Shown: positions 1 through 45,395 of the stretch, piece by piece
Position numbering within the stretch: position 1 is the stretch's first letter
How the letters are laid out: each line of letters starts with the position of its first letter
DNA from: Escherichia phage OLB35
Strand: one strand, 5' to 3'
Sequence record: MH992122.1
Length of the DNA: 64,000 nucleotides
Notes under the pieces: model-generated
The model's input: the letters and a program-made list of their open reading frames with translations, nothing else
Database searches by the model: none
What the model was told of the DNA's origin: nothing
Translations under genes and position numbers: made by a program

Positions 1-1531
1 GCTTCTTTAATTATTTCACCATTACGTTGAGCTGCAAGCATGTAACCTTTATGTTCTTTACGTTGATTAAAGACCTTAGTGATTTCAGTTGGAACTACAC
101 CATCACGGTCTTTATAATACATCATGCCGTTAGGAGAGCAACTGTACACATCTGAAGGACGTTCAGCGATTGCGTTAATATAATCATGCAATGGAGCTAC
201 TTTAAACGTTCCTGCTATTGTTTCTGGGCTAATATTCACTTGGCGAATAATACTTGGATACAGAGATGTAAGGTCGAAACTCATTACATATTTGTATCGA
301 TTTGGAATAGGTTCCTTAACAAAAGCGCCAGGATAAGGTTGAACCTGGTGAGAACGACCTTGTGGAATCACCTTGTTCTGCTCTTTAAGGCTATTAAAAA
401 TAATAACATCCCATGTTTTAATTGGGCTAAACACAGATTGAATCTGTATCTTAGCATAATAACCCATGTCCAAACTCAAGTTTATGAACTGGCGTTTAGC
501 ATCAATTTGCAATACACGATACACGTCGATAATGTTATAAGAAATATATCGTTGGTGATTACTTTCACGAAGTTTAGAAATAGGACCGTCATATTTCAGT
601 TTACCGACATTCAATTCAAATTCTGAAATGTAATCCAGAGAATACGACGGTTGGTTTGTGAAAGAGAATTTTTTGTAAAGGTCGATATAATCAAGAACAG
701 AGATACCGAACAATGTAATGATTTCACGAGAACCGTACATGTTTTCAATAACTTTAACACGAGTCTTGCGATACTGCAAAAACCTAGATCATTGTCGGGT
801 GGTGATAAACGTTTCGCAGTAGATTCGCCAAAAATATTCTTGATTCGGTTATACACATATGGAATATCAAATGACTCAACGTTCCATCCAGTCAAAATGA
901 CAGGAGTTTTCTGTTGCCAGAAGTTGAGATATTCCATCAACAATTCTTTTTCGTTATCAAACGGCATATAAATGATTTTATCAATAATTTCGGATGGAAC
1001 TTCATCACCACCTTGTTCTTGAAGCTTAGCAGCGATTTCAATAGACCATTCTTCTACATTACCATATGGAGAATTCAATAGATCAAATACGTAGAACCTG
1101 TCGTCAATTGAGTCATAATGGGTGATAGCATCAATCGGATGTTTTGCTTGTGACGGCTCAGGGAACCCATCCGGAGATGTTACTTCGATGTCGAAGTTAG
1201 CCACACGAATTTTTGTATGGTCGTATTTGATTTCATAGTTATAAGTGTCAGACAAATACGCCAATTTGAAATCGTCCATACCTAATGCTTCAAGACCAAT
1301 ATCTTCCATGCGTTTAATCCATTGGGAGGCATCACGCATATTAGCGAACAACTTACGAGTACACGGCTTACCGTAGATATCGAAATATTTAGTAGCCTGA
1401 CTTTCTGGACAATGAGCAAACAATGATGGTTTATATTCTACTTCACGAGTACGTTCACGGCCATTAGAATCGATGTAACGTTCAAAAATTGAATCACCAA
1501 TCTGTTCAACCGTTAAGTAAAATTCTTTCAT
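1..1531 (-). CDS. 43: DNA polymerase gp43 (B-family), N-terminal ~500 codons; frame interrupted near 775-800; gene runs off the window start
   Basis: From ATG at 1531: MKEFYLTVEQIGDSIFERY...FDIEVTS...GESTAKRLSP, RB69/T4 gp43-like exonuclease domain. Below ~782 the polymerase continues in a different frame (RKTRVKVIENMYGSR...SLYPSIIRQVNISPE...) to position 1. Confidence 0.9.
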
Positions 1532-31711: not shown

Positions 31712-32014
31712 TTATTTACCTTTAATTACTTTAGCTGCTTCGATAGCCGCTTGCTGAAGGTCATCCATAGACATACCGAATTTAGAAGCAAAGTTATCAA
31801 TTTTCTTTTCGACAGCATTCAAAGGCTTGGCCTGTTTACCTTCATTAGCGCCAGGAAGAGCGAGAATACGCTCTTTGTCAATATAAAGGCTTACAAGTTT
31901 CTTACGGTCTTTATCGGACAAATCATGAAATGAATGGGCCTTTTTATTTATAGCGGCTTCTAATTTACCTGCACTCACTCGCGCTTCAGTAATAAATTCT
32001 TGATATGTTTTCAT
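31712..32014 (-). CDS. ipII: Internal protein II-like (capsid-targeted)
   Basis: N-terminal capsid targeting sequence MKTYQEFITEA...; 100 aa; resembles T4 IPII as recalled. Confidence 0.8.
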   Translation of the reverse strand: MKTYQEFITEARVSAGKLEAAINKKAHSFHDLSDKDRKKLVSLYIDKERILALPGANEGKQAKPLNAVEKKIDNFASKFGMSMDDLQQAAIEAAKVIKGK

Positions 32015-32078
32015 TTTTTGTTTCCTTGTTTGTTTTGATAGAGTAATTATACCATATTAATACTTAAGCGTAAACAAT

Positions 32079-32339
32079 TTAAGCTTTACCGCCAGAAATA
32101 ATTCCGAAGTTGTTAAAATCGTATCCAATATCGTCAACATCTACTTTAGGATTTACTACAACATAAGCAATTTCACTACGTTTTGCATAGGTGTTGATTT
32201 CTTTACCATCGCCACCTAAGAAAGAATACCCATTACGTTTTAATGAGCCAAAGTCTTCGGCATCACCAATTTACTTCGATAGCAGCTTTCTGTTCCGCAG
32301 ATAATGTACTTCAGTGATAAACTCTTGATATGTTTTCAT
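32079..32339 (-). pseudogene. Internal-protein-like gene with in-frame TAA after codon 22
   Basis: ATG at 32339: MKTYQEFITEVHYLRNRKLLSK, TAA at 32271-32273, then the same frame stays open to 32079 (IGDAEDFGSLKRNGYSFLGGDGKEINTYAKRSEIAYVVVNPKVDVDDIGYDFNNFGIISGGKA). Confidence 0.5.
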
Positions 32340-32345
32340 TTTTCC

Positions 32346-32756
32346 TTAGTAAATTGATTTACCATAGTATTTGTACCAAGTCGGACGTTGAGCAATTTTT
32401 TCATCTAAGCGTGCTTGACTTATCGCAATGGACGCTTCGGACGGGACATAATTATTACGAAATTCGGCAGGGATGTCGGAAATATCCTGGACTGTCGTGT
32501 CCTTGATTTTGAAACCACGTTTCAAACATTCAGCGATTAGCTCGATTTGACGTAAACGTAAAAATTCGAGTTTGTCGTAAAAGAATGTTACGTGACCTGT
32601 GCCTAAGATAAATGTTGGAGAGATTTTAAAATCCTTTACACATTTACCATTTTGAACATGTTTACGGACTGCACCAAATACGCGTGGTAATTCACGATAC
32701 TCAGCCATAAGATGTTGGTCGGACAGTTCAGAAACAAGTGTTAAATTGATACGAGT
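32346..32756 (-). CDS. denV: Endonuclease V (pyrimidine-dimer DNA glycosylase) DenV
   Basis: [35 protein letters not shown]... near-identical to T4 DenV. Confidence 0.92.
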
Positions 32757-32817
32757 CATAATTTCCTCCAAGTAGTTGATGAATGTATAGTATCAAAACT
32801 CTTGGAGGAAGTAAACA

Positions 32818-33099
32818 CTATTTTTCTGAAGCGCCTGAAATATATTTTTCAAGACGTTGTTTCATCAGCGAGCCGTTCTTAGCGATTTCTTCCGGTTTAT
32901 CGCACATACGCAACAAGGCTTCAAGCTTAGCGATATCACTGGTGCGCTCAAATTTGCGAGTATCTATCTTACTAGCAAGTTCAGAAATACGTGCTAATAG
33001 ACTTTCAGCTTCAACCAAAGCTGCACCTAGCTTAGTTGCAAATGTGTCAGTAGCTTCGTTAAGAATAGATTCTGATAAAAATTCACTATATGTTTTCAT
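32818..33099 (-). CDS. Internal protein (CTS-bearing)
   Basis: Starts [10 protein letters not shown]...; 93 aa; adjacent to lysozyme e. Confidence 0.6.
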
Positions 33100-33557
33100 A
33101 TATACGCTTTCCAAGTTCCTGTTTTAAATGTTGAGATTACGCGTTTCGCGCGATTAGGTGTCTGACGATACCATTTAGATTGGGCTAGATTTACTGCCGC
33201 TTCATCCCAACGTTTCTGTTGAAGCATACGAAGAGAATTAGTAAAACCAGCGACGCCTGCTACACCCATTTGGAAGACCATATTGACCAATGCACACCGA
33301 CGAACTGCATCTAAAGAATCATATACCGGTTTAAGTTTAGCATTAACGTCTTCATTAAATAGCTTTTCAGCCTCATCAAGGGTAATTGTACCGTTGCATT
33401 TACGACCGATCATTCTGTCAAGTTCAGCTTTAGCTACGGCTAAAGACGGGTTCTTTGTTACTAAATGGCCTATGCCAATCGTCCAAAAGCCTTCAGTGTC
33501 TTTGTATAAAGTCAGTCTAAGACCTTCGTCATTACGAAGCATTTCAAATATATTCAT
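33096..33557 (-). CDS. e: Lysozyme (endolysin) e
   Basis: [32 protein letters not shown]... matches T4 lysozyme; appears to lack ~9 residues near T4 positions 70-80. Confidence 0.92.
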
Positions 33558-33591
33558 AATACCTCCCACGTTTATAGGAGGTATTTATTAC

Positions 33592-34050
33592 TTATATGAC
33601 GGTAGTGAGCACCTTATATAATGATTTGCCCATTACATATTCCCATTGAGAAGGTTTAATTAAAGCGTATGCATCAAATTCAGGAATCTGTCGTCCGTCT
33701 GGGAATGTATGATAGGAATTACAAACACTGTTTCTGAATTGCTCGTGCTCTACAGGGATGGTATATAGGAACAGATGAATATTCTTATTGTCTGAGTAAT
33801 GATGTTCACCTAGGTCTTTCAGGAAGGCAGGGTCATATTGTGTAAACCCAGTTTCTTCTTCGCATTCACGAATAGCGGCTTCAATAGGAGATTCGCCAGG
33901 TTCGACACGGCCTTTAGGAATATCCCACCGATGAGCTAAAGAACCTTTAGGACGAGAACCAGTTACACGGCCCATGAATAACTCTTTATCTTCGGTAAGG
34001 AAAATAATACCGGCTGATAGCTCTTTCACTTTATTTTTCTTACTCATCAT
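33592..34050 (-). CDS. nudE: Nudix hydrolase NudE (e.1)
   Basis: Nudix box GRVEPGESPIEAAIRECEEETG; downstream of e as in T4. Confidence 0.85.
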   Translation of the reverse strand: MMSKKNKVKELSAGIIFLTEDKELFMGRVTGSRPKGSLAHRWDIPKGRVEPGESPIEAAIRECEEETGFTQYDPAFLKDLGEHHYSDNKNIHLFLYTIPVEHEQFRNSVCNSYHTFPDGRQIPEFDAYALIKPSQWEYVMGKSLYKVLTTVI

Positions 34051-34276
34051 CTCGGTCCCATGATTTGGCCATTAATTCGGACATAAATTCTTCAATGCGC
34101 GTTTCTTTAGATGGACTTTCACTATTAGAGACCGCAAGTTTGTAATCTGCAATAGGACAGAACATATCAAGGTCCATATTAAGATCGTCTTTGATTTTTT
34201 CTTCTGACACATCTTTATCATATGTGTACAGATAACTATCACATGATTCTGATTTAATGTAAATTGCTATACTCAT
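34040..34276 (-). CDS. Hypothetical acidic protein
   Basis: ~78-aa ORF. Confidence 0.4.
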   Translation of the reverse strand: MSIAIYIKSESCDSYLYTYDKDVSEEKIKDDLNMDLDMFCPIADYKLAVSNSESPSKETRIEEFMSELMAKSWDRDDE

Positions 34277-34764
34277 CTCAAATTCCTGCATTCGGTAATA
34301 AAACGTTCAACTTCATTATTCTTGGCCTTTATCTTGTCTTTACGTTCCTGTAAACTACTTTTAACAAGATTAATAATGATGCCTATAGTACCTCCACCAA
34401 TAATACCACCAATAATACTTACGATAGTAGATGCTAATAAGATAGCGATAATATCTAATATAGCAAAGGCACTTACTTTAGTACTAAAAAACCACACCGA
34501 TGGTACAAATATAATCCATCCTGTTATCCATTGGCACTTATTGAAAAACTTTTCAAGCTCAGCTTGAGTTGTTCGTATTACTTCATCGATAGGTTGATAT
34601 CCATTAATGTATCTGTTCACGATAATACCTGCTGGTTTGTCGATTTTAAATGCTTGACATTGGTGTTTCACTAAATAAGATGGACATCCTGTCCAATCTA
34701 CTGAATAGTATGAAATACCTTCGTTGCCATCGTCTATATTAGACCAATATGTTTTGTTAATCAT
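34273..34764 (-). CDS. Membrane protein with glycine-zipper C-terminus
   Basis: 163 aa; two TM segments including IIGGIIGGGTIGIIINLV. Confidence 0.5.
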   Translation of the reverse strand: MINKTYWSNIDDGNEGISYYSVDWTGCPSYLVKHQCQAFKIDKPAGIIVNRYINGYQPIDEVIRTTQAELEKFFNKCQWITGWIIFVPSVWFFSTKVSAFAILDIIAILLASTIVSIIGGIIGGGTIGIIINLVKSSLQERKDKIKAKNNEVERFITECRNLR

Positions 34765-35450
34765 TACCAGCCTTCCATAGGGAATTCCAGATAAACTTGG
34801 GCATTGACACGAATTTCATTGGTGATCTTTTTAACTCGGTCTGTATTACGAGATACACGTCCGAACCAACGCCATCCATTACTAATTGCACGAGAACCAG
34901 TGTGCCATGTTTGCCAATCGAACTGAAGAAGAGTACGGTCTGGAGCTTCCCATTTCTCTAGTTCGCCTTTTTCAATTTTTTCGAGGACTTCTTTGTGCCA
35001 TTGGCGATAGATAAGTTCGCCATCAGGAATCTGACTGAACTCTGCAGTTCCTGTTGCAAAATGAGTAGGACACACGTCAGCGTTAACAAGACCAAGAATA
35101 TGTTCAGACAAATAGCGAGGATTGTCATAGTCAGGTTGTCCTGCAGTAATAAAATGTTGACCAACCGGAATATCCCGGCGCGGTACATCATCATGGTGAT
35201 AACCTGGAATAGCAGGATACCAACCAGGCATCAGCATATGAACCCGAGAATCAAATACAACATGTTGATTAGTCCAATCAATTGGGAGATTGACAATAAA
35301 GCTACGAGTAATAGGACCGCCGTTATCCTAAGCAAATTTTAAACTACAGTTAAAGAACATAGGCTCGTTCTTGATTTGATCATTAGAAATACCGCCGGCA
35401 AAACCACCTACTGCACGAGCTTGACTATTAAACACTTTAGAACTATTCAT
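34764..35450 (-). pseudogene. 229-codon reading frame interrupted by an in-frame amber codon
   Basis: ATG at 35450 (MNSSKVFNSQARAVGGFAGG...SLKFA), TAG at 35328-35330, same frame continues (DNGGPITRSFIVNLPIDW...) to 34764; the track sees only the C-terminal 157 aa. Confidence 0.5.
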
Positions 35451-35451
35451 A

Positions 35452-35757
35452 TTATTTTCCTCGACATTCTTTAATGAAATTTTCTAGATTGGTAGATTCA
35501 ATAGCTTTTTTACGAGCTTCTGCGTGTTCTTCTTCAGACAATTTACATTTATAATTAACCCAGACGTTATGGTCAAAACTAGTCGTGGCATATAATAACA
35601 AAGCCCCGACGAATAATAAAAATGGTGATAAGAATACAAAACCAGGAACACCATCCATATCGTAAGCCTTTTGTAATACTGCAACAGAAAGAGCTACGTA
35701 AAAAGGTGATACAAATATAGTTAAAAGACCAATTCGGTTGGTTTCGCCTAATTTCAT
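35452..35757 (-). CDS. Membrane protein
   Basis: 101 aa with two hydrophobic helices. Confidence 0.5.
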   Translation of the reverse strand: MKLGETNRIGLLTIFVSPFYVALSVAVLQKAYDMDGVPGFVFLSPFLLFVGALLLYATTSFDHNVWVNYKCKLSEEEHAEARKKAIESTNLENFIKECRGK

Positions 35758-35785
35758 AATATTCTCCTCATGTTTTAATAGGACT

Positions 35786-35814
35786 ACTATAACATAGTCC
35801 TATAATTGTGTAAA
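35786..35814 (-). promoter_or_regulatory. Early promoter / PeSL element
   Basis: Minus-strand TTTACA-N17-TATAGT; -10 between inverted arms ATAGGACTA/TAGTCCTAT. Confidence 0.55.
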
Positions 35815-35827
35815 CAGTTTTGCGAAA

Positions 35828-36784
35828 TTATTTGAAAGGTTTTACCATATGGAAATTTTGTTTAAAACGTTTTACATAATCGTCATGTCCTAAGCTTTGG
35901 TACATACTTACAACTTTGCTGTAGTTTTCCCAAGCGTATTCACGGAACCAGCCTGACGTGATTGAAGTACAGACTTTTTCTAATGCCATCATAAAACTAT
36001 CACGTGGATGGATTTCAAAGTTATTAGGAATCTGAGAACGTTCTAACGCTAGTACACATGATTCTTCGTATACGCCGGCTAATTTGACCATTTCTGGTAA
36101 TGATTCGAACTTCTCGCGTGAGGTCATGACTTCAGAACCATCTTTCATATAAAATGTATACGCTGGACGGTCTGTTAGTGCAATGGCTTCGTGAATAGTA
36201 TCATGGTCATACGTATAGATGTCATCTTTAAAGAATGCGCTTTTAGAAGTGTCAAGAACTGGGTGAGCATAGTTCAAGGTTTCTTTCTGGCGTTTCAGCA
36301 TAATTTCAGTAAGTTCATCGTTCAGTGTAACACCTTTACCACGAAGATACTGAATATGGTTCATAGTCTTTAAAAAGAATGGATTATTTTTCTTGAAACG
36401 ATGAGACATCTTAATTGCAAGACACATCTCAGGAGTTGCCCAGTAAAACCCGTTCAAACGGTCTTTAGTCAAATTTTTCTTGGCGTATTTTAAAAGGTCA
36501 TAAGAAGACGTGAAATCTTCAGGAGTGAGTTCACCGACTAATTCACGGACATTAGTGATTGCCGGAACAATATATGCTTCAAAATGAGTTTCGCGTCCAT
36601 TATGGAAGCATTTGAAAACTTGGACATCAGGGTTATCTTGGTGAACATATACACCCATCATTTGATTTTTGAATACATTCCAAGAACCTTGGTCCGCAAT
36701 AAAGTCCCAATCACTATTTTTGATAGCGCTAGAATCAATAAGGCCGTGATAGTGAAGTGCACGAGAACCAATAACTAACATCAT
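35828..36784 (-). CDS. Hypothetical protein (318 aa), candidate enzyme
   Basis: Large ORF (MMLVIGSRALHYHG...) with no motif I can assign. Confidence 0.55.
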   Translation of the reverse strand: MMLVIGSRALHYHGLIDSSAIKNSDWDFIADQGSWNVFKNQMMGVYVHQDNPDVQVFKCFHNGRETHFEAYIVPAITNVRELVGELTPEDFTSSYDLLKYAKKNLTKDRLNGFYWATPEMCLAIKMSHRFKKNNPFFLKTMNHIQYLRGKGVTLNDELTEIMLKRQKETLNYAHPVLDTSKSAFFKDDIYTYDHDTIHEAIALTDRPAYTFYMKDGSEVMTSREKFESLPEMVKLAGVYEESCVLALERSQIPNNFEIHPRDSFMMALEKVCTSITSGWFREYAWENYSKVVSMYQSLGHDDYVKRFKQNFHMVKPFK

Positions 36785-36812
36785 AATATTTTCCTCGGAT
36801 TAATTCATTAAC

Positions 36813-37064
36813 TTAAATTTCGCGACATGCGATATTATATTCATCCCAGAGGTCGTCATGTGAAGCCTCTACCAATGGAACGATTGTGCCGTTTATGTCT
36901 TCATTATAAGGGCAAATTGTACAGTGCGCATCTTCGAATCGGATGCCTTTGTGTTCAGATTTTTTATAACGCATATCGAATATCTTTGCAAACTTTTCAC
37001 GAGTAATAGTTTTAGCAACTACTTCTGTTCCTATACTTTCGTAATAAACCATTGTTGTCTCCAT
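36813..37064 (-). CDS. Cys/His-rich small protein
   Basis: 83 aa; HCTICPYNEDINGT...CREI. Confidence 0.45.
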   Translation of the reverse strand: METTMVYYESIGTEVVAKTITREKFAKIFDMRYKKSEHKGIRFEDAHCTICPYNEDINGTIVPLVEASHDDLWDEYNIACREI

Positions 37065-37080
37065 TTAATTTGATAGGACT

Positions 37081-37109
37081 ACTATAACATAGCCCTATCT
37101 TGTTGTAAA
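37081..37109 (-). promoter_or_regulatory. Early promoter / PeSL element
   Basis: Minus-strand TTTACA-N17-TATAGT with flanking GATAGGACT/AGCCCTATC arms. Confidence 0.5.
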
Positions 37110-37114
37110 CTGTT

Positions 37115-37312
37115 TTAGCAAGAATAACTAGATGATACCCAGCCTTGAACAGTAATACTATTATTTGATAACGAGATTGCGTCCTGGAGATTCAGACCTG
37201 CATTATCTTCAATCCACAATGTAACTTCTTCACGCTCTTCGGTTGCAATCTGGAACAGGTTTTCTAGAGCAGCTACTGCCGTACGTACAGCACAATCTAA
37301 TTCACGAGACAT
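37115..37312 (-). CDS. Small protein, WVSSSxxC-tail family, member 1
   Basis: 65 aa ending ...VQGWVSSSYSC. Confidence 0.5.
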   Translation of the reverse strand: MSRELDCAVRTAVAALENLFQIATEEREEVTLWIEDNAGLNLQDAISLSNNSITVQGWVSSSYSC

Positions 37313-37321
37313 ATGATTTCC

Positions 37322-37595
37322 TTAACAAGTGTGAGAAGATGCAACCCAACCACCATCTTCAAGGCTCAAGTTGTAGTCGTATTGGTAAACGTCGGCCCAT
37401 TCAGCATAACCGTTTTTTTGTACAACGTTCAAGATCGGCTTTAAGATGTCCTGGTGAATGATAGGTTCCACCCATGCCATAAGCTGGATACAAGTTGAAT
37501 GTTGTGTTTTGTTTATTAGCAATTTCTTTGGCAGCCTCAATAGCTGCATAGATTTTTGCTACAGCTTCAGCCAGTTCGGTTTGTTCTTTAGACAT
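37322..37595 (-). pseudogene. WVSSSxxC-tail family member 2, frameshifted
   Basis: N-terminal frame (37595-37401: MSKEQTELAEAVAKIYAAIEAAKE...YGMGGTYHSPG) and C-terminal frame (to 37322: ...NGYAEWADVYQYDYNLSLEDGGWVASSHTC) each match the intact paralogue. Confidence 0.5.
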
Positions 37596-37604
37596 AATGA
37601 TTCC

Positions 37605-37910
37605 TTAGCACAACGCAGAAGACGAAACCCAAGCACCTTCAGTAATAACGTAACCATTACCTTCACGCTTAACATCGCCACCATTATTTTCAATTTCATC
37701 TTTCATCCACTGGGATACGATTTCACCCTTAGGATAATAAGTACGACCGCTACCATAATCACCTACAGAAAATGATACTGCATATTGGTCTGCGATCTTT
37801 GTTGCTTCTTCTTCGATACGTTCAGCTTGATTCAGAAGTTTATAAATTGCATCTGAAGCGGATTTGGCATCATTAAACTCTGGTACTTTAATTTCAATAA
37901 TCTTACTCAT
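37605..37910 (-). CDS. WVSSSxxC-tail family member 3 (intact)
   Basis: 101 aa: MSKIIEIKVPEF...GDYGSGRTYYPKG...GNGYVITEGAWVSSSALC. Confidence 0.55.
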   Translation of the reverse strand: MSKIIEIKVPEFNDAKSASDAIYKLLNQAERIEEEATKIADQYAVSFSVGDYGSGRTYYPKGEIVSQWMKDEIENNGGDVKREGNGYVITEGAWVSSSALC

Positions 37911-37935
37911 TTTCTACATTCCTTAATAAAGTTTT

Positions 37936-38321
37936 CGATTGTTTCATTTTCACGTTTAGCTAGGAGTTCATTATAACTAATCATTTGAGAAGCGTAAACA
38001 GCATAAATTCAGTTAAGGCTTTTGCATCTTATTTCCTTAACGAATTCCATAGCTTCTTCATATTCATACTTTTTAACAGCTTCGATTGTTTCATTTTCAC
38101 GTTTAGCTAGGAGTTCATTATAACTAATCATTTGAGAAGCGTAAACAACGCCGTCAATAAGAAATCCAACTAATCCAAAGGCAAATCCCATGCCAATACT
38201 CATAATAAAAATTAGAATGTTCTCACCAAGAGAAGGCCAGCATAAATTCAGTTAAGGCTTTTGCATCTTATTTCCTTAACGAATTCCATAGCTTCTTCAT
38301 ATTCATACTTTTTAACAGCTT
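37936..38321. repeat. Segmental duplication, units A-B-A-x-B (A ~65 bp, B ~83 bp)
   Basis: A at 37936-38000 and 38083-38147; B at 38001-38083 and 38239-38321, near-identical; unit A carries GTTTAC-N17-TATAAT on the minus strand. Confidence 0.8.
38009..38203 (-). CDS. Chimeric small membrane protein sharing its C-terminus with the next gene
   Basis: 64 aa; last 22 aa (VKKYEYEEAMEFVKEIRCKSLN) identical to the end of 38248-38640 because of repeat unit B. Confidence 0.4.
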   Translation of the reverse strand: MSIGMGFAFGLVGFLIDGVVYASQMISYNELLAKRENETIEAVKKYEYEEAMEFVKEIRCKSLN

Positions 38322-38640
38322 CATCATACTGAGCTTGGGCTTTTGCGCACTGAACTTTCCATTCTCTTAATCGGGCTCTGTGATGACGTCCTTGGTACCA
38401 ATATCCCATCCAGTTAATAGGCATTAATAAAAACGGTACAATAAGTGGTGCGACGAACATTAATGAAAATGCTGCATCAGACGATATAACTTCACTAGAA
38501 TCTAAAACGGCTCCTATAATCATAAAGATTAAAAATGCTAAAGCTAAAATAGGGCCAAATAGTACTTCATTTGGGATTAATTTACGCTTGTATTCATACG
38601 CCCAGGGCTTACTTGGCATGTATAGGGTTGGCTTTGACAT
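38248..38640 (-). CDS. Membrane protein
   Basis: ~130 aa from the internal Met (MSKPTLYMPSKPWAY...); two TM helices. Confidence 0.5.
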   Translation of the reverse strand: MSKPTLYMPSKPWAYEYKRKLIPNEVLFGPILALAFLIFMIIGAVLDSSEVISSDAAFSLMFVAPLIVPFLLMPINWMGYWYQGRHHRARLREWKVQCAKAQAQYDEAVKKYEYEEAMEFVKEIRCKSLN

Positions 38641-39232
38641 ATTCTCTACATTCCATAATAAATTGCTCAAGGATTAAATTGTTAGTGAAATTAGGACTAA
38701 CAACCATAGTTTCATAAAGCGCATCAATAGCACTTAAAGCATCAACTCTCTTAAGCAAAGGCTTGCCTTCATACATAGTTTCAGAATCGACGATTAACGT
38801 AAAGTAGTATTTTTTATTATCGACTAGAACTTCTGTATCGATATAAAACATATTAGTCCTCAGAAGCTTATCTCTAAAACCATAATAATCTTCAGAGCGT
38901 TCGCTGATATATTCCCATTCAGTGTTTAAACAACAAACAGACCACGTAGGAGCAACGAAATCAGTGAATCTAATATCATGGTCTGCAACTAGTTTAGCAA
39001 TAGCTCCGATATCATGAATCATAATACCTGGGGCTAATAAAGATTTTCTGCTATGGCTAGCCGTTTTCTCGGTGGTCTCATAAGAAGACGACCAGTACCA
39101 TTTACGTCCGGTTGCAACATATCGTAATGAATCAACTAAAGACGTAGGTGGATTTACCTTATCTCGGAACTCTTCGAACATTGAGTCAATATCATTATTT
39201 TGGTTTCGCATGTTAACTCCTTTATTATCCAA
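38609..39232 (-). CDS. Hypothetical protein
   Basis: 207-aa ORF; start may be at 39211. Confidence 0.5.
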   Translation of the reverse strand: MDNKGVNMRNQNNDIDSMFEEFRDKVNPPTSLVDSLRYVATGRKWYWSSSYETTEKTASHSRKSLLAPGIMIHDIGAIAKLVADHDIRFTDFVAPTWSVCCLNTEWEYISERSEDYYGFRDKLLRTNMFYIDTEVLVDNKKYYFTLIVDSETMYEGKPLLKRVDALSAIDALYETMVVSPNFTNNLILEQFIMECREYVKANPIHAK

Positions 39233-39260
39233 AAGGAGGACCGGAGTCCTCCGTATTATT

Positions 39261-39854
39261 TTATTTCAAAGAGTTAATATATTCTTGTACATCAGCAGAA
39301 GTGGTTTCGACACCGGCTGGAGTGCCATTGAACGTTTCAACACGAGTCAGAGTGTCTTCGATATCAACCTTAGTCAGTGCAGCAATTTCAATCACATCAT
39401 CAGCCGTAGAGATACCAAGGGCATTGGCTGCTCGAGTTTCACGAATGTATTCGAGTTTGATTGCCAGATTCTGACGAGCATCATCAAGTTCAACCACCTT
39501 ACGAGCAATTTCAATTCGCATAGCGGCATAACCGTCAGCTTTTGTATTAAGTTGTTCGGCAGTTCGACGATACAGAAGACCAAGCTTAGCATGCATGGTA
39601 ACATCTTGTCCTTCAGCCAGGAGCTTACGAATTTCACGTTCCTTAGAAGCGGCTTGCTTGTTCTTTTCATTAACAAGTTCGCGAATACGTTTTTCTTCAT
39701 TAATAGATTTAACAGAAGCCGTTTTTAGTTCTTTGATTTGGGTAATCAACTTATCTGCAGCTGCGTTATACTGTTCTTCGACAGTCAGATTTTTAGCCAT
39801 AGCAGTACCCAGTTTAGTGCGGATGAATTCAACAAGTTTCTTCAGTGTGTTCAT
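39261..39854 (-). CDS. Alpha-helical coiled-coil protein (possibly PspA/IM30-like)
   Basis: ~198 aa, Ala/Lys/Glu/Arg-rich heptad pattern; family assignment is tentative. Confidence 0.4.
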
Positions 39855-39924
39855 ATTATTACCTTTCAATTGGTGGTTTATTATCCAATGAGAGCATTAT
39901 ACTCTGCTCTCAAGAGTTTGTAAA

Positions 39925-40152
39925 TTATTTTTTAATCAAATTGACATAAAACTTGGCGTCTTCCGGGTGCATGCCTTCGCAGTATTCTTCAACCATGAAC
40001 TTCTTAACAGCTTCATAAGGACCACTCAGATTAAGCTCAGTTGTCCAAAACTTGGAATCTTGGGCTGAATCGATACGAACTTCAGGGTGTCGGTTGCGAA
40101 TAACTTCTTCGGTGTATTCATAATCAACGACATCAATACTAACTTTAGCCAT
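39925..40152 (-). CDS. Hypothetical protein
   Basis: 75 aa: MAKVSIDVVDYEYTEEVIRNRHPEV... Confidence 0.5.
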   Translation of the reverse strand: MAKVSIDVVDYEYTEEVIRNRHPEVRIDSAQDSKFWTTELNLSGPYEAVKKFMVEEYCEGMHPEDAKFYVNLIKK

Positions 40153-40700
40153 TTTGTTTCTCCTCTGTAGTTGATAAGTCTTAACTATAGTATCACCATC
40201 ATTGGTGTTTGTACATCATTATTTTTAATTTTTCCAACTTAACAACCTTCAGCCAAGATACAACAGAGTTTTTATCTGAGGATTCAAATTCAGGCATTGG
40301 ACTTTCACCGCGAATAACTTCTTCGGTGTATTCATAATCAACGACATCAATACTAACTTTAGCCATTTTGTTTCTCCTCTGTAGTTGATAAGTCCTATAG
40401 TATCACCATCATTGGTGTTTGTACATCATTTATTTTTAATTTTTCCAACTTAACAACTTGTAGTGTCCTTCATTCATACGTGGTTTATCCCAAGAAATAC
40501 TAATATATGATTCGCCATCAATAGCTTTTTCTTCACCACCACCACTGATAGTCCTCTGTAGTTGATAAGTCCTATAGTATCACCATCATTGGTGTTTGTC
40601 AACTATTATTTTTAATTTTTCCAACTTAAAACTTGTAGTGTCCTTCATTCATACGTGGTTTATCCCAAGAAATACTAATATATGATTCGCCATCAATAGA
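40085..40700. repeat. Three tandem copies of a ~160-230-bp module (gene 3' end, promoter, leader, gene 5' start)
   Basis: Core ...ttttgtttctcctctgtagttgataagtc(c/t)ta...tagtatcaccatcattggtgtttgt... recurs at ~40153, ~40366 and ~40549 with flanking duplicated coding ends. Confidence 0.8.
40199..40366 (-). CDS. Chimeric 55-aa ORF created by the duplication
   Basis: MAKVSIDVVDYEYTEEVIRG...; first 19 aa identical to the start of 39925-40152, then diverges. Confidence 0.3.
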   Translation of the reverse strand: MAKVSIDVVDYEYTEEVIRGESPMPEFESSDKNSVVSWLKVVKLEKLKIMMYKHQ

Positions 40701-40916
40701 AGTCGCCGGGTTTTTCTCTACCGTAAGACCTTCACTTTCCAGCCATTCAATAGTATTTGCGCATAAATCTGAAGAACACCTCATCGGAAACTGGCAAGAT
40801 TTTTCACCTTTAGATGCAGCGTTATACATCTTTTCTAAAATACGCTTTTGCACGTTTTTAAAAATGGTTTCAGCAGATTCTTCAGATTTTTTATTCAGTT
40901 CAGTATAAAGACTCAT
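40626..40916 (-). CDS. Hypothetical protein
   Basis: Start at the second Met (MSLYTELNKK...) after GAGGAG; C-terminal coding end is duplicated in repeat copy 2. Confidence 0.5.
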   Translation of the reverse strand: MSLYTELNKKSEESAETIFKNVQKRILEKMYNAASKGEKSCQFPMRCSSDLCANTIEWLESEGLTVEKNPATSIDGESYISISWDKPRMNEGHYKF

Positions 40917-41005
40917 AATATTCTCCTCATTAATAGGGCTCATAATATCTCAATCATTAGCTCATTTACGTATTTATAGTAACAGCATTCTCTGAGAGAT
41001 TCAAA

Positions 41006-41033
41006 CTAAAAAGCCCCAACCTTTTGGCTAGGG
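41006..41033 (-). terminator. Rho-independent terminator
   Basis: Minus-strand AGCC-loop-GGCU hairpin followed by UUUUU, 3' of 41043-41507. Confidence 0.5.
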
Positions 41034-41042
41034 TACAGAATG

Positions 41043-41507
41043 TTATTTGATTTGTTTAGCAGACCAAATGCGGTCTTTAATAAGTTTTTGGATATCTTCA
41101 ACATACTCAAGGCTATGAGCGTGAGGATTATCTTTGAAGCTATGTGCTCGTGCCAGTTTCTGGCCTTCAGTTTTGATTACCAAAAGTTCTTTAAGAATTG
41201 CTTCATACTTAGAAATAATTCCTTTGGCGATATTTTTTTCTTGAGCTGCTTTAGGGCCCGCTTTTGGTGCTGGTGCTTTACCTGTAGCTTTCTGGAACAA
41301 TTCACCTGATGCAGCTAGGCTTTTAAAAACTCGGCTAACAGTATTAGCATTAGTAAAACCTTCGGCTTTAAAATCTCTAATAAAACGGAAACGTTCTTCA
41401 TCAGAGGCGTCTTTGTAAGAATATTTACCTGCTTGAATTGCTGCAATCGCAGCGGCTTTTACATCTGAACTAGATTGTTCAGTCAAAAATTCTGCATATG
41501 ATTTCAT
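41043..41507 (-). CDS. Internal-protein-like (CTS-bearing) protein
   Basis: N-terminus MKSYAEFLTE resembles the capsid targeting sequence; 154 aa, Ala/Lys-rich. Confidence 0.5.
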   Translation of the reverse strand: MKSYAEFLTEQSSSDVKAAAIAAIQAGKYSYKDASDEERFRFIRDFKAEGFTNANTVSRVFKSLAASGELFQKATGKAPAPKAGPKAAQEKNIAKGIISKYEAILKELLVIKTEGQKLARAHSFKDNPHAHSLEYVEDIQKLIKDRIWSAKQIK

Positions 41508-41551
41508 GTTACTTTTCCTAAGTTAATTAACTTATCTATTTATTATTATGC

Positions 41552-41580
41552 AAAAAAGCCCCAACCTTTCGGAAGGGGCT
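41552..41580 (-). terminator. Rho-independent terminator at the end of the tRNA/stable-RNA transcription unit
   Basis: Minus-strand AGCCCC-loop-GGGGCU hairpin followed by a U6 tract. Confidence 0.6.
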
Positions 41581-41582
41581 AA

Positions 41583-41886
41583 GCCTTGCGGTAACCTTGT
41601 CGGGGTTCCACCTGCTAAGGCAAGTGTTTGTACGAAACGCCGGGATTCGAACCCGGTTATTAAGCAGTTGACGCTACTCAATATTTTTAAAAGGCCATAT
41701 CTCGACCATATCCGAACGTTCCGTCAAAAACGCTACTCGGCTTACGGCAAAGATATTTCCTCGAATCGATAATTCGGTGCGCCGTTTCTGCTGTGATAGT
41801 AAAGAATCAGAACACAGTAAAACTGTGGGAGAAACTATACTCCAGGGAACATCAGTCCGACGACTTACCGGTAGCGACCCGGTTTC
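41583..41886 (-). ncRNA. Non-coding stable-RNA region with a tRNA-like T-arm (possibly analogous to T4 small RNAs)
   Basis: No plausible minus-strand ORF; contains CCGGG-TTCGAAT-CCCGG plus a repeated GAGTAGCG; bounded by tRNA-Arg and the terminator. No cloverleaf could be folded by hand. Confidence 0.3.
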
Positions 41887-42231
41887 TCATTTTGGCATAT
41901 CATCAATTTGCTCTCGACGCCGACGCCATAGATTAATCGCTTCATTAACACATTCGGCGTTTGGTATATGACGGCAATAATATAATGATTCGCGTTTCTG
42001 GAACCGATGTTGCAACGGGATTTCGTTTAAAAGATCTTTACGATCAAAGTATTCAAAACTAGTTAACCCTGAACGGTTTTTAATGAACTTCCAATGTCCG
42101 AATTCGTTTTGAACATAGATGTAATCGGCATGCTGATACAGCGAATTAATCAACCGGTCGGAAATAACTGTATCCTGTTCGTTAAAATAAAACGTTAAAT
42201 CATGAACTACCAGATAAATATTACCTTTCAT
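41887..42231 (-). CDS. Hypothetical protein inside the tRNA cluster
   Basis: 114 aa from the ATG at 42231 (MKGNIYLVVHDLTFYF...) with GAGGAAA; the longer track form would overlap tRNA-Arg. Confidence 0.5.
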   Translation of the reverse strand: MKGNIYLVVHDLTFYFNEQDTVISDRLINSLYQHADYIYVQNEFGHWKFIKNRSGLTSFEYFDRKDLLNEIPLQHRFQKRESLYYCRHIPNAECVNEAINLWRRRREQIDDMPK

Positions 42232-42249
42232 ATTTTCCTCACTTGAAGT

Positions 42250-42326
<77 letters not shown>

Positions 42327-42329
42327 AAT

Positions 42330-42404
42330 TGGTGACCCTGGCTGGTTTCGATCCAGCTACCTATCAGTTATGAGCTGACAGCTCTCCCATTGAGCTACAG
42401 GGCC
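42330..42404 (-). tRNA. tRNA with anticodon CAU (Met or Ile2-type)
   Basis: Acceptor GGCCCTG/CAGGGTC, D-arm GCTC-AATGGGA-GAGC, anticodon loop CTCATAA, T-arm GCTGG-ATCGAAA-CCAGC, encoded CCA; C4-G69/C5-G68 fit an Ile2-type tRNA. Confidence 0.8.
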
Positions 42405-42483
42405 TAAATAACTTTCTATTATGAAAGGCACTTTAGAGCACCTTTGGTAATAGAGGGTATGAATTAATAATAACACATAATTC

Positions 42484-42999
42484 TTAAAGCAAATCAATCA
42501 TTTTAACGGTTGGCAAAACGATTTCTTCTTCAATATAAGCAAATTCGACACGTTCAACTACACGCAAGAAATCGTAATCATAGTATTCAGAAGCATAGCC
42601 AAGAATATCAATAAGTCCTTGAGATATCTCATCGCCTTTCACAAAGAACAGGTCGAATACGCGGGCTTCGTCTTCTTCAGATTTATCACCAAGGTCTACT
42701 TCGATGCCAAAGACCTTTTTAATAAATTCCGGTTGGAGTTGGTCTGAGAACAGTCCTTCAACCAGATATTCGTAGATAATAAGCGAGCAACGACCGAATG
42801 GTGTATTACCGCAATAACGTTCGGCTTTGGTGCTAGAATGACGGCTCTTAAATTTCTTCAAGAGATATTTAAACTGTTGGAGCTCATGCTCTTCCACTTC
42901 AAACAATGTTTTGGTTTTATAGTTGTCACCATCACTTTCATAGGTAGTGACATCAATTACGTAGCCCTTAGGAATTGTACTGCCTAATCGAATATTCAT
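42484..42999 (-). CDS. Hypothetical protein
   Basis: 171-aa ORF. Confidence 0.5.
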   Translation of the reverse strand: MNIRLGSTIPKGYVIDVTTYESDGDNYKTKTLFEVEEHELQQFKYLLKKFKSRHSSTKAERYCGNTPFGRCSLIIYEYLVEGLFSDQLQPEFIKKVFGIEVDLGDKSEEDEARVFDLFFVKGDEISQGLIDILGYASEYYDYDFLRVVERVEFAYIEEEIVLPTVKMIDLL

Positions 43000-43003
43000 T
43001 TAA

Positions 43004-43294
43004 TCACCGTACCATATTAATGTAATTATATTCAATGCAACGTAATTTCAAAGGATTCTTGAAAATATCATATTCAAGAGGGCCTTTTTCTGTTTCAATA
43101 AAGAAATCAAAGTTAACTGTGTTAAATTTATCATCTTCACAGAGTAATTTAACCTGTGAAGACGAACGGTCAATGTAAACCTTTTCAACTTCAAAATATG
43201 TTAAAATGCCATAATCATCGATCAATGCTTTAGCTGCACGTTGATCGCTTTCGTATCCATTCTCGACAGATTTTACTTTAGCATAAAGAATCAT
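43004..43294 (-). CDS. Hypothetical protein
   Basis: 96-aa ORF. Confidence 0.45.
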   Translation of the reverse strand: MILYAKVKSVENGYESDQRAAKALIDDYGILTYFEVEKVYIDRSSSQVKLLCEDDKFNTVNFDFFIETEKGPLEYDIFKNPLKLRCIEYNYINMVR

Positions 43295-43653
43295 GAGTGT
43301 TCCACCGCTTCAAAAGTATGTGCATTTACAATCTGGTACCAGTCAAAATTTTCTTCAGCATTTTTGTAGATTTCACGAAGAGCTTCAACAGTTTTTCCTG
43401 TAGCAACAAGATCATCAATACCACCAAGAGGATAACAGTCATAACCAGCAAACAGAAGGAAATTAATAGTTTCTGTAGGTTCTGGATGCAGTGTACCATT
43501 GTCATCGACTACTTCAAAGAACATATAACCAGGCGATTTAGATTTAATCCAAGCCCATGCTTGAGCTGCTGAATCAAATGGTCTGCGTATCAAACGACAA
43601 TCAGGGTCTTTAGAAGGATTTGCTTCAAAATCTGCATATACATGATATTTCAT
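43291..43653 (-). CDS. Hypothetical protein
   Basis: 120-aa ORF with 4-nt overlap. Confidence 0.5.
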   Translation of the reverse strand: MKYHVYADFEANPSKDPDCRLIRRPFDSAAQAWAWIKSKSPGYMFFEVVDDNGTLHPEPTETINFLLFAGYDCYPLGGIDDLVATGKTVEALREIYKNAEENFDWYQIVNAHTFEAVEHS

Positions 43654-43839
43654 TTACTCACCTTTTGCAATTTTATCCATAACGATAGCGATTAAGCCGA
43701 TTAGAAATGCTACTACCAATGAGATAGAGTTTTCAGTTGTTGTCAGTAGTCCACAAATGAATCCTACAAACATCGAAAAGCTAAAAGCCATTGAAGCAAT
43801 TACTACAGCAACATTACGAATCAGTTCAGCGCGTTTCAT
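43654..43839 (-). CDS. Small membrane protein
   Basis: 61 aa with two hydrophobic helices (MKRAELIRNVAVVIASMAF...). Confidence 0.5.
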   Translation of the reverse strand: MKRAELIRNVAVVIASMAFSFSMFVGFICGLLTTTENSISLVVAFLIGLIAIVMDKIAKGE

Positions 43840-44265
43840 TTTATTTCTCCTTTACTCATTTTGTTTTGATAGGACTACTATAACATATCCATATAGGCTT
43901 GTATATCTTTATTTCAAATATATTGCGTATTTTTTATAGCCACCAGGCTCGTGTCGAAGACCTTTATCATTCGCAAAACGTTGAATGTTATTGAACTGGT
44001 TTTCATCGAATGATGATTTAATCTTAGCTTTAGATCCTTTAGTTATAGAAATAAACATCTCGGAAGACCCTTTCTTAAAGTCTGATGCAGATACTTCAAC
44101 ACCGTTCTTAGCAAGTGACCTCAGAATTGCATCTGCGTACACTTCATATGTGTCGAATATGAAAAAGTTTTGTTAGCTACCAAGCGTGATATATTGAGAA
44201 TCAGTTCAGCGCGTTTCATTTTATTTCTCCATTTACTCATTTTGTTTTGATAGGACTATTATAAC
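43819..44265. repeat. Direct repeat pair (~65 bp each) carrying a PeSL promoter plus the first codons of a gene
   Basis: gaatcagttcagcgcgtttcattttatttctcc...gataggact...ataacat at 43819-43885 and 44198-44265; the second copy starts a 32-codon ORF sharing MKRAELI with 43654-43839. Confidence 0.75.
43909..44142 (-). CDS. Hypothetical basic protein
   Basis: 77-aa ORF. Confidence 0.45.
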   Translation of the reverse strand: MYADAILRSLAKNGVEVSASDFKKGSSEMFISITKGSKAKIKSSFDENQFNNIQRFANDKGLRHEPGGYKKYAIYLK

Positions 44266-44286
44266 ATAGTCCTATCGGCATGTAAA
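44258..44286 (-). promoter_or_regulatory. Early promoter / PeSL element with perfect 10-bp inverted repeat around the -10
   Basis: Minus-strand TTTACA-N17-TATAAT; GATAGGACTA ... TAGTCCTATC arms flank the -10. Confidence 0.6.
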
Positions 44287-44290
44287 CTAC

Positions 44291-44578
44291 TTACAGAAGA
44301 GTTTTTGCAATAATTTTAAGCTGAGCTACAGAAATGTGCTTAGCTTTAAACAGTGCAGTCTCTTCAGCCGGAGAGATAACAATAGTAGCGCCATCTTTCT
44401 TAGCAGACCATCCATCCCCTAAGTAAACAGTACCTTTTACTTCTTCGCCGTCAGCCAGACTAATCATTGGTTTGCCCTCACGTCCTTTATTTGCTTTAAT
44501 AACTTCGGAAGTAAGGGTTGCTTCAGTCAGAGTAGAAACGTTAGCATCAGGTGATATAAATTCTTTATAGGTTTTCAT
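44291..44578 (-). CDS. Internal protein I-like (capsid-targeted)
   Basis: Starts MKTYKEFIS...; 95 aa; sits between the tRNA region and 57B as T4 ipI does. Confidence 0.6.
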   Translation of the reverse strand: MKTYKEFISPDANVSTLTEATLTSEVIKANKGREGKPMISLADGEEVKGTVYLGDGWSAKKDGATIVISPAEETALFKAKHISVAQLKIIAKTLL

Positions 44579-44624
44579 TTTATTTCCTTGAGGCTGTTTA
44601 TTTGATAGGATGATAGTAACACAC

Positions 44625-45395
<771 letters not shown>

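Follow-up and report, generated by a model that had tools for sequence, protein, structure and literature searches.

Genes for predicted capsid-targeted internal proteins, and their remnants, in the genome of Escherichia phage OLB35

We analyzed a stretch of 64,000 nucleotides (nt) from Escherichia phage OLB35 (sequence record MH992122.1), referred to here as the window, with a focus on genes between positions 31,712 and 44,578 whose products begin with the capsid targeting sequence (CTS) of T4-type internal proteins (Ips). The 13.5 kb around these ip genes share 97.7% identity with Escherichia phage CCU7 and 93-95% with the Mosigvirus genomes phiC120 (~95%; Straboviridae; Tevenvirinae; Mosigvirus), SHSML-52-1, ATK47 and PhAPEC2. 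Judged by these identities, the window is from the genome of a Mosigvirus, an RB69-like T-even phage. The minus-strand gene order (1, 57A, 57B, ip1, tRNA.4-.2, two tRNAs, rnaD/rnaC, e.x block, nudE, e, denV, vs.x) keeps the T4 layout.

Genes that begin with a shared leader

We found four intact genes and one interrupted copy with the leader. A six-frame scan of the window for starts of the form MK[TS]Y.EF[IL] gave exactly five matches, all on the minus strand (Table 1), and these are the five that the original prediction, made from the DNA letters, had listed. Looser leader patterns, applied over the whole window, gave no additional open reading frame (ORF) of at least 40 amino acids (aa), and no ORF of that length had a more divergent leader. 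A Shine-Dalgarno sequence is present at each of the five starts, and ~30 nt of leader-coding DNA are conserved as well as the peptide.

Table 1. Features of the ip region of the OLB35 window, in order of position
Feature	Position	Strand	Remarks
ip2 orthologue	31712-32014	-	CTS start; 100 aa; leader MKTYQEFITE; predicted mature form 90 aa, pI 9.7
T4-early-type promoter of ip2	32046-32075	-	GTTTAC-N16-TGGTATAAT; sequence pattern
Dead chimeric ip gene	32079-32339	-	intact CTS, 22 codons, TAA; junction 32260-32283
CTS start of interrupted copy	32271-32339	-	22 codons, then TAA
Ip5-type internal head protein	32818-33099	-	CTS start; 93 aa; second L-x-E at ILNE15
154-aa CTS protein	41043-41507	-	CTS start; 154 aa; leader MKSYAEFLTE; predicted mature form 144 aa, pI 9.7
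Parts of the 154-aa protein	residues 11-72; 73-84; 85-151		helical N-domain; Ala/Pro/Lys linker; helical hairpin (AlphaFold2)
Late-promoter-like AATAAATA	41537-41544	-	37 nt upstream of the ATG of the 154-aa gene
Terminator hairpin closing the rnaC homologue	41552-41580	-	within 41531-41580
Related second cassette copy	43868-43895	-	ahead of the true tRNA.4-like gene start at 43839
Leaderless ip fossil	43909-44142	-	Ip7 residues 29-72 fused to Ip9 residues 56-90; no CTS, no ATG
Duplicated first 7 codons of tRNA.4-like gene	44199-44219	-	MKRAELI
Promoter and stem-loop cassette	44249-44287	-	within 44199-44287
ip1 orthologue	44291-44578	-	CTS start; 95 aa; leader MKTYKEFISP...TLTE; mature IPI*-like form, 76 aa, after residue 19
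T4-early-type promoter of ip1, with internal stem	44613-44642	-	GTTTACA-N-TTACTAT; sequence pattern
Tandem duplication of 57B 3' end and ip1 early promoter	44678-44728 and 44624-44673	-	sequence read

Unrelated small ORFs could in principle share N-termini by chance or through composition, and the shortness of the motif is the one point that speaks for this. The five observed matches, at real gene starts on the coding strand, compare with an expectation per window of 0.0003 (analytic) or 0.003 (300 mononucleotide shuffles), and 300 triplet-block shuffles gave no match. Together with the matches of three intact genes to annotated Ip families described below, these values already refute the coincidence explanation, to which we give almost no weight.

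The leaders retain the residues mapped in T4. Position 4 (aromatic) and position 7 (Phe) are described as targeting residues, and position 8 (Leu/Ile) and position 10 (Glu) as determinants of cleavage by the prohead protease gp21 (Mullaney & Black 1996, as cited in PMC9026906; PMC8442874). The four intact proteins and the interrupted copy all have Tyr4 and Phe7; the full set of four mapped residues is found in the interrupted copy and, among the intact proteins, in three. Candidate gp21 sites are FITE10 in Ip2, FLSE10 plus ILNE15 in the 93-aa protein, FLTE10 in the 154-aa protein, and LTE19 in Ip1. The Ip1 leader keeps Tyr4, Phe7 and Ile8; it has Pro10 in place of Glu, and L-T-E at residues 17-19, where T4 IPI has ITE19. 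The structure of the mature T4 protein (PDB 2JUB) begins at residue 20, and cleavage of the window Ip1 is expected after residue 19, by analogy to T4 IPI.

The proteins behind the leaders are unrelated to each other in sequence, as had been predicted. Without their leaders, the mature parts reached only z <2.1 relative to shuffles in each of the six pairwise local alignments; the cargoes behind the one leader are therefore unrelated. BLASTP among the CTS proteins likewise aligned little past the N-termini.

The repertoire had been called large and diverse. The unrelated mature parts bear out "diverse", but "large" did not hold: the same scan of the equivalent regions that we fetched found seven CTS genes in RB69, seven in phiC120, six in CCU7 and three in T4. 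At least 10 unrelated cargo families occur across these few phages. The repertoire of the window is ordinary for the group and smaller than in its sister phages. Published counts of Ips are at least 10 (Repoila 1994, as quoted in PMC12373910) and over 30 described variants (Comeau 2007, as cited by Arbiol 2010, PMC2839356).

The two classical ip loci

In published accounts, ip genes are confined to two hyperplastic loci (Repoila 1994 and Arbiol 2010; PMC2839356), and Silas et al. likewise describe two (PMC12373910). With these taken as 57B-tRNA.4 and e/denV, the loci of the window hold ip1, ip2, two dead remnants and, adjoining e, the Ip5-like gene; the 154-aa gene lies outside. We assign three of the four intact genes to named families (Ip1, Ip2 and Ip5-type), and the claim that genes sharing the leader encode T4-type internal proteins is supported by identities of 87%, 93% and 48%, respectively, and by Pfam and PHROG matches.

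The gene next to 57B is the orthologue of T4 ip1. Its product is of the same length as T4 IpI and 87% identical to it in amino acid sequence. It matches Pfam family PF11634 (IPI_T4) with 166.7 bits (gathering threshold, 25) over the full mature domain, residues 20-95 corresponding to positions 1-76 of the 76 in the profile, which places it in the family. PDB 2JUB chain A (IPI*) aligns to the same residues, that is, to the mature protein past a 19-residue propeptide, and the PHROG match is phrog_4363, internal virion protein. In T4 IPI, too, the propeptide has 19 residues and ends in T-E, and the T4 gene agrees with that of the window in lying downstream of 57B and in its early-promoter arrangement. 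There are 12 substitutions between the two proteins, which may or may not alter target specificity. The tandem duplication just upstream of ip1 has a unit of ~50 nt that takes in the last 57B codons (…WAEDLK*), and between its copies there are two differences, one substitution and one extra T.

The second gene is the orthologue of T4 ip2. It is 93% identical to T4 ipII in amino acid sequence and 96% in nt sequence, matches phrog_7857 (4.5e-55), and shares with T4 IPII the CTS and the type of early promoter. The nt identity to T4 of denV, e, 57B and nudE is only 73-80%. This difference suggests that the ip2 cassette was imported recently, from the Tequatrovirus pool. Its position also differs from T4, where the order is e-ipIII-ipII-denV; in the window ip2 lies beyond denV, with a dead ip chimera beside it, and ip3 is absent. 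We note a perfect late-promoter octamer, TATAAATA, at 31952 (minus strand) inside the ip2 coding sequence, one of six on the minus strand of the window.

The third gene and the lysozyme gene e share 4 nt, the start of the former overlapping the stop of the latter. Its 93-aa product matches PHROG 3499 ("internal head protein"), is 48% identical over 84 aa to RB15 Ip5 (GenBank entry deposited with Repoila et al. 1994), and has counterparts in phiC120 and RB69 that RefSeq labels "internal head protein". RB15 Ip5 sits in the ipI locus, whereas the window homologue is in the e/denV locus. The RB69 Ip5-like copy (RB69p127; L006 4923-5204) has a degenerate leader, MKTYMNFYQNLSLNE, without Phe7, Leu8 and Glu10. 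Because this copy still keeps the second L-x-E at residue 15, we suggest that ILNE15 is the relevant cleavage site in the Ip5-like family.

The interrupted copy was confirmed, but a simple frameshift does not account for it; it is a chimera of two other ip genes. Its 5' part (nt 1-66) corresponds to the 5' end of a 109-aa CTS gene (APCEc01, NHEP11, RB69ORF123c) with one T deleted. Its 3' part corresponds to an 86-aa CTS gene (RB69p125, CCU7) from approximately codon 22. The TAA lies at the junction (GAAG-TAA-ATTGGTGAT), and the 86-aa-type codons beyond the stop remain in frame. Even with the deleted T restored the frame ends a few codons later, and for this reason we consider the gene dead. 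Intact parental genes are present in APCEc01, NHEP11, RB69 and CCU7. All of this identifies the copy, from its sequence, as a scar of illegitimate recombination between two other ip cassettes.

We found a second remnant, which the original prediction had not listed, between ip1 and the tRNA.4-like gene. In tblastn comparisons it is 91% identical to RB15 Ip7 over 44 aa and 80% identical to RB15 Ip9 over 35 aa. Pieces of both proteins are thus kept in the window, with the leader lost. This arrangement was found in one piece in no phage record of the database searched. The fossil is flanked by related copies of a promoter/stem-loop unit (Table 1).

The content of the denV-side locus varies among relatives. 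Downstream of the 86-aa-type gene is a slot occupied by Ip2 in the window and CCU7, by Ip3 and the 109-aa gene in phiC120, and by 104/90-aa and 109-aa genes in APCEc01 and RB69. Shuffling at promoter-early stem-loop (PeSL) elements has been proposed for the ip loci of T4-type phages (Arbiol et al. 2010, PMC2839356). As in that proposal, ip1, ip2 and the Ip7/Ip9 fossil are bounded by early-promoter/stem-loop units, which are duplicated exactly at the points of rearrangement. The denV-side chimera differs, having recombined within the coding leader region and not in a PeSL, and the 154-aa gene differs in being bounded by a terminator and a late promoter. We suggest that the ip set is renewed by cassette exchange, with recombination at the shared leader DNA and at intergenic promoter/stem-loop elements. 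Products of such exchange would be the two dead chimeras as well as the T4-like ip2, a recent import.

The 154-aa gene and its surroundings

The fourth intact gene encodes a protein that is 100% identical to phiC120 gp256 and whose only PHROG match is 2280 ("unknown function"). T4 has no gene at this position. The mature part has no match past the leader to T4 Ip1-3 or to RB15 Ip5, Ip7, Ip8 and Ip9, and so belongs to none of these named Ips. Hence the claim that it corresponds to no T4 internal protein was upheld. A BLAST alignment of its N-domain to Ip2 (39% identity over 43 aa) included the leader and had z = 1.9 without leaders; we rejected homology.

We found the family in 511 of 50,697 phage records (tblastn), from phages of Escherichia, Shigella, Klebsiella, Yersinia, Salmonella and Citrobacter. 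These include ~70 near-identical Mosigvirus copies and ~400 Tequatrovirus copies at 60-80% identity. In every record examined, the gene is annotated "hypothetical protein" or has no feature, and named members of the cluster are annotated likewise. An exhaustive HMMER search of 1.84 billion representatives returned only eight proteins, those traced being from T4-like phages, and the family therefore appears to be narrowly distributed. We found no description of the family or its location in the literature searched, which excluded the Ip catalogues of Comeau 2007 and Repoila 1994. Literature searches with accession numbers and leader peptides, and for proteomics of fHe-Yen9-01, gave nothing relevant.

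Distant homologues preserve the logic of the leader. Proteins 36-49% identical to the 154-aa protein begin MKFKEFLAE (KpM198), MLEYSEFLKE (fHe-Yen9-01), MLKFNEFLAE (P0010) or MITFNDILAE (L019). Position 4 is aromatic (Tyr/Phe), position 7 is occupied by Phe or, in one homologue, by Ile, the residues in between vary, and the KpM198-type leaders are one residue shorter. The N-domain, with an invariant AGKYSY motif, is kept in the homologues from Klebsiella and Yersinia phages, and the C-terminal part is far more divergent. Structure prediction had been proposed as a check. The AlphaFold2 model (mean predicted local distance difference test score, pLDDT, 74; shallow alignment) has a disordered leader (residues 1-9), a three-helix N-domain at pLDDT 80-90, and the helical hairpin beyond a disordered linker; the fold match that might have given a clue to function did not emerge.

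The gene follows a stretch of ~320 nt (41568-41892, minus strand) that is 90% identical to T4 rnaD/rnaC (species 2 and species 1; direct BLAST), including a tRNA-like T-arm. Rfam found only two tRNAs in the region upstream of the 154-aa gene, and none of its models detected the rnaD/rnaC homologues. The tRNAs that remain are these two (Met-CAT and Arg-TCT), compared to eight in T4. In most homologues from E. coli phages, a terminator and TATAAATA or AATAAATA lie 36-48 nt upstream of the gene. A perfect T4 late promoter, TATAAATA, is at the same position in six IMG/VR homologues as well as in ime09 and KpM198, and another two near-identical loci carry AATAAATA there. This is unlike ip1 and ip2, which in both the window and T4 have early-type GTTTAC...TAnnnT promoters with internal stems. 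The 154-aa gene would be an unannotated Ip-type gene at a third site, downstream of the tRNA genes and just after the rnaC homologue, with a late-type promoter in place of the early-promoter cassettes of the two classical loci.

A 187-aa CTS protein of the RB69ORF149c type (phiC120 gp255, ime09 gp250) is the usual neighbor of the 154-aa gene downstream of the tRNA genes in relatives, and is the only one of the pair at this site in RB69. It has the leader variant MKTYAEFLTE, is annotated as hypothetical like the 154-aa protein, and is absent from the window. Homology between the two was rejected (mature parts, z <=2.5). The 187-aa gene is at L001 17212-17775 (phiC120 gp255), L006 13429-13991 (RB69ORF149c/148c) and L002 4600-5163 (ime09); in RB69 two ORFs seem to make up the gene, as if through a frameshift.

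The 154-aa protein might not be in the virion at all. Its leader could be a hitch-hiking remnant of recombination, and the protein could be a cytoplasmic one that acts late in infection. In the window, leader-coding DNA has demonstrably served as a substrate for recombination, as in the chimera. The gene also lies away from the canonical loci and lacks an early-promoter cassette, all records examined call the family hypothetical, and we found no proteomic report of it in the literature searched. However, a remnant would decay, and the targeting and cleavage residues persist down to 36% identity in Klebsiella and Yersinia phages while the residues between them vary. A late promoter fits the timing of head assembly, and the first 10 residues of T4 IPIII, the CTS alone, are enough to package foreign proteins (PMC9026906; PMC8442874). 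We consider a cytoplasmic protein with a remnant leader improbable. The 154-aa protein is probably a new member of the internal proteins, with predicted packaging and function. A bolder proposal, which we put forward tentatively and think may well not hold, is that the 154/157-aa family and its 187-aa neighbor define a third, late-promoter-driven ip locus (rnaC-e.8), whose injected product, made up of the conserved N-domain and a much more divergent helical C-terminal domain, would act against a host defense other than the GmrSD variants targeted by Ip1-3.

Some small ORFs between the e/denV locus and the 154-aa gene have stretches of sequence in common. Three consecutive ORFs on the minus strand (37115-37312, 37322-37549 and 37605-37910; 65, 75 and 101 aa) all end in W-V-[SA]-S-S-x-x-C, with the tails GWVSSSYSC, GGWVASSHTC and GAWVSSSALC, and look like a paralogous trio in which the C-terminal tail is conserved. 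The adjoining minus-strand ORFs 39925-40152 (by position, frd.3 of RB69 and the "FRD3 protein" of CCU7) and 40199-40366 have an identical 19-residue N-terminus, MAKVSIDVVDYEYTEEVIR, and then diverge, which looks like a partial duplication. Two others, 38009-38203 and 38248-38670 (minus strand), also adjoin, and their last 21 residues, KKYEYEEAMEFVKEIRCKSLN, are identical; the N-terminal parts of both contain hydrophobic stretches, which may be membrane segments.

Proposed delivery and anti-defense function

In T4, approximately 1000 Ip molecules per head are injected with the DNA (PMC3012670). If the mechanism in this phage is that of T4, the ~10-residue CTS would dock each product on the scaffolding core of the prohead, and gp21 would cut the leader off after the L/I-x-E motif. 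The mature protein would then remain in the head, enter the cell with the DNA, and act ahead of any phage gene expression.

The original prediction cited inhibition of a type IV restriction system by IPI* of T4, and the literature confirms this. T4 Ip1 acts on GmrSD-CT596 (GmrS/GmrD of E. coli CT596) and Ip2 on the BREX-associated GmrSD-ECOR21 (Silas et al. 2025, PMC12373910). Of the three T4 proteins Ip1, Ip2 and Ip3, each inhibits a single GmrSD variant and none cross-protects (PMC12373910), and ipIII is required on ECOR17 (literature on T4). By orthology, the Ip1 and Ip2 copies of the window would inhibit two different type IV nucleases of the GmrSD family. Mosigvirus DNA contains arabinosylated 5-hydroxycytosine, and Mosigvirus phage NP is restricted by the GmrSD-family enzyme BrxU (PMC13390438). 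Since NP is restricted despite the arabinosyl modification, inhibition of GmrSD-type enzymes by the orthologues is plausible.

The prediction of an arsenal of injected anti-defense proteins corresponds to an established hypothesis (PMC9026906, PMC2839356), in which Ips are diverse defense proteins that share only the conserved CTS (PMC3012670). For the window, it is plausible for the orthologues of the two T4 inhibitors. The Ip5-like and 154-aa proteins would share the delivery route, and an anti-defense role for them is conjecture.

Basic Ips, especially the 154-aa protein with its Lys/Ala/Pro linker, could instead have a mainly physical role in neutralizing the charge of the DNA or organizing the genome. 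The predicted mature pI is 9.0-9.7 in three of the four proteins, basic as in the T4 Ips. T4 Ips are embedded in the packed DNA, touch its phosphates via lysines, and have been proposed to aid packaging speed (PMC3012670). The 154-aa linker, GKAPAPKAGPKAAQEK, is of the lysine-rich, low-complexity type. In contrast, the Ip5-like mature protein is not basic (predicted pI, 6.3). T4 can do without its ip genes on laboratory hosts, yet it needs each of them against a specific nuclease. The fast turnover of cassettes and the unrelated folds point to diversifying selection by host factors and not to a generic structural role. We think it unlikely that the main role is physical, although slightly less so than that the 154-aa protein is absent from the virion. 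Physical and anti-defense roles are not mutually exclusive.

Based on these results we suggest, with a probability of about 85%, that the region contains the ip genes of a Mosigvirus, that they encode CTS-delivered head proteins and turn over by cassette exchange, and that Ip1 and Ip2 are most likely GmrSD inhibitors. Several points weigh against this. Packaging, cleavage and injection in OLB35 are predictions from the genome, and we found no virion proteomics or injection data for these families in the searchable literature. Ten further ip genes gave no inhibition of five more GmrSD systems (Silas et al., PMC12373910), and it is therefore not established that every Ip is a GmrSD inhibitor. 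The targets of T4 Ip1 and Ip2 were defined with phages whose DNA has glucosylated hydroxymethylcytosine, whereas the cytosines of Mosigvirus are arabinosylated; the orthologues may therefore meet different enzyme variants. The 154-aa gene is outside the two ip loci of the literature, its late promoter in the window matches at seven of eight positions, and fold and sequence searches with the protein gave no match suggesting a function or binding partner.

The finding as a whole is known biology, in the literature since 1994, and only the 154-aa family is modestly new. Injected proteins precede phage transcription and are thus what the phage first sets against restriction. As a concrete snapshot of cassette swapping, the region offers two dead chimeras and a near-identical ip2 of T4 type. 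An unannotated CTS family in 511 genome records, among them therapeutic-type coliphages and phages of Klebsiella and Yersinia, is a candidate for the next restriction inhibitor, and naming it would correct the annotation in many genomes.

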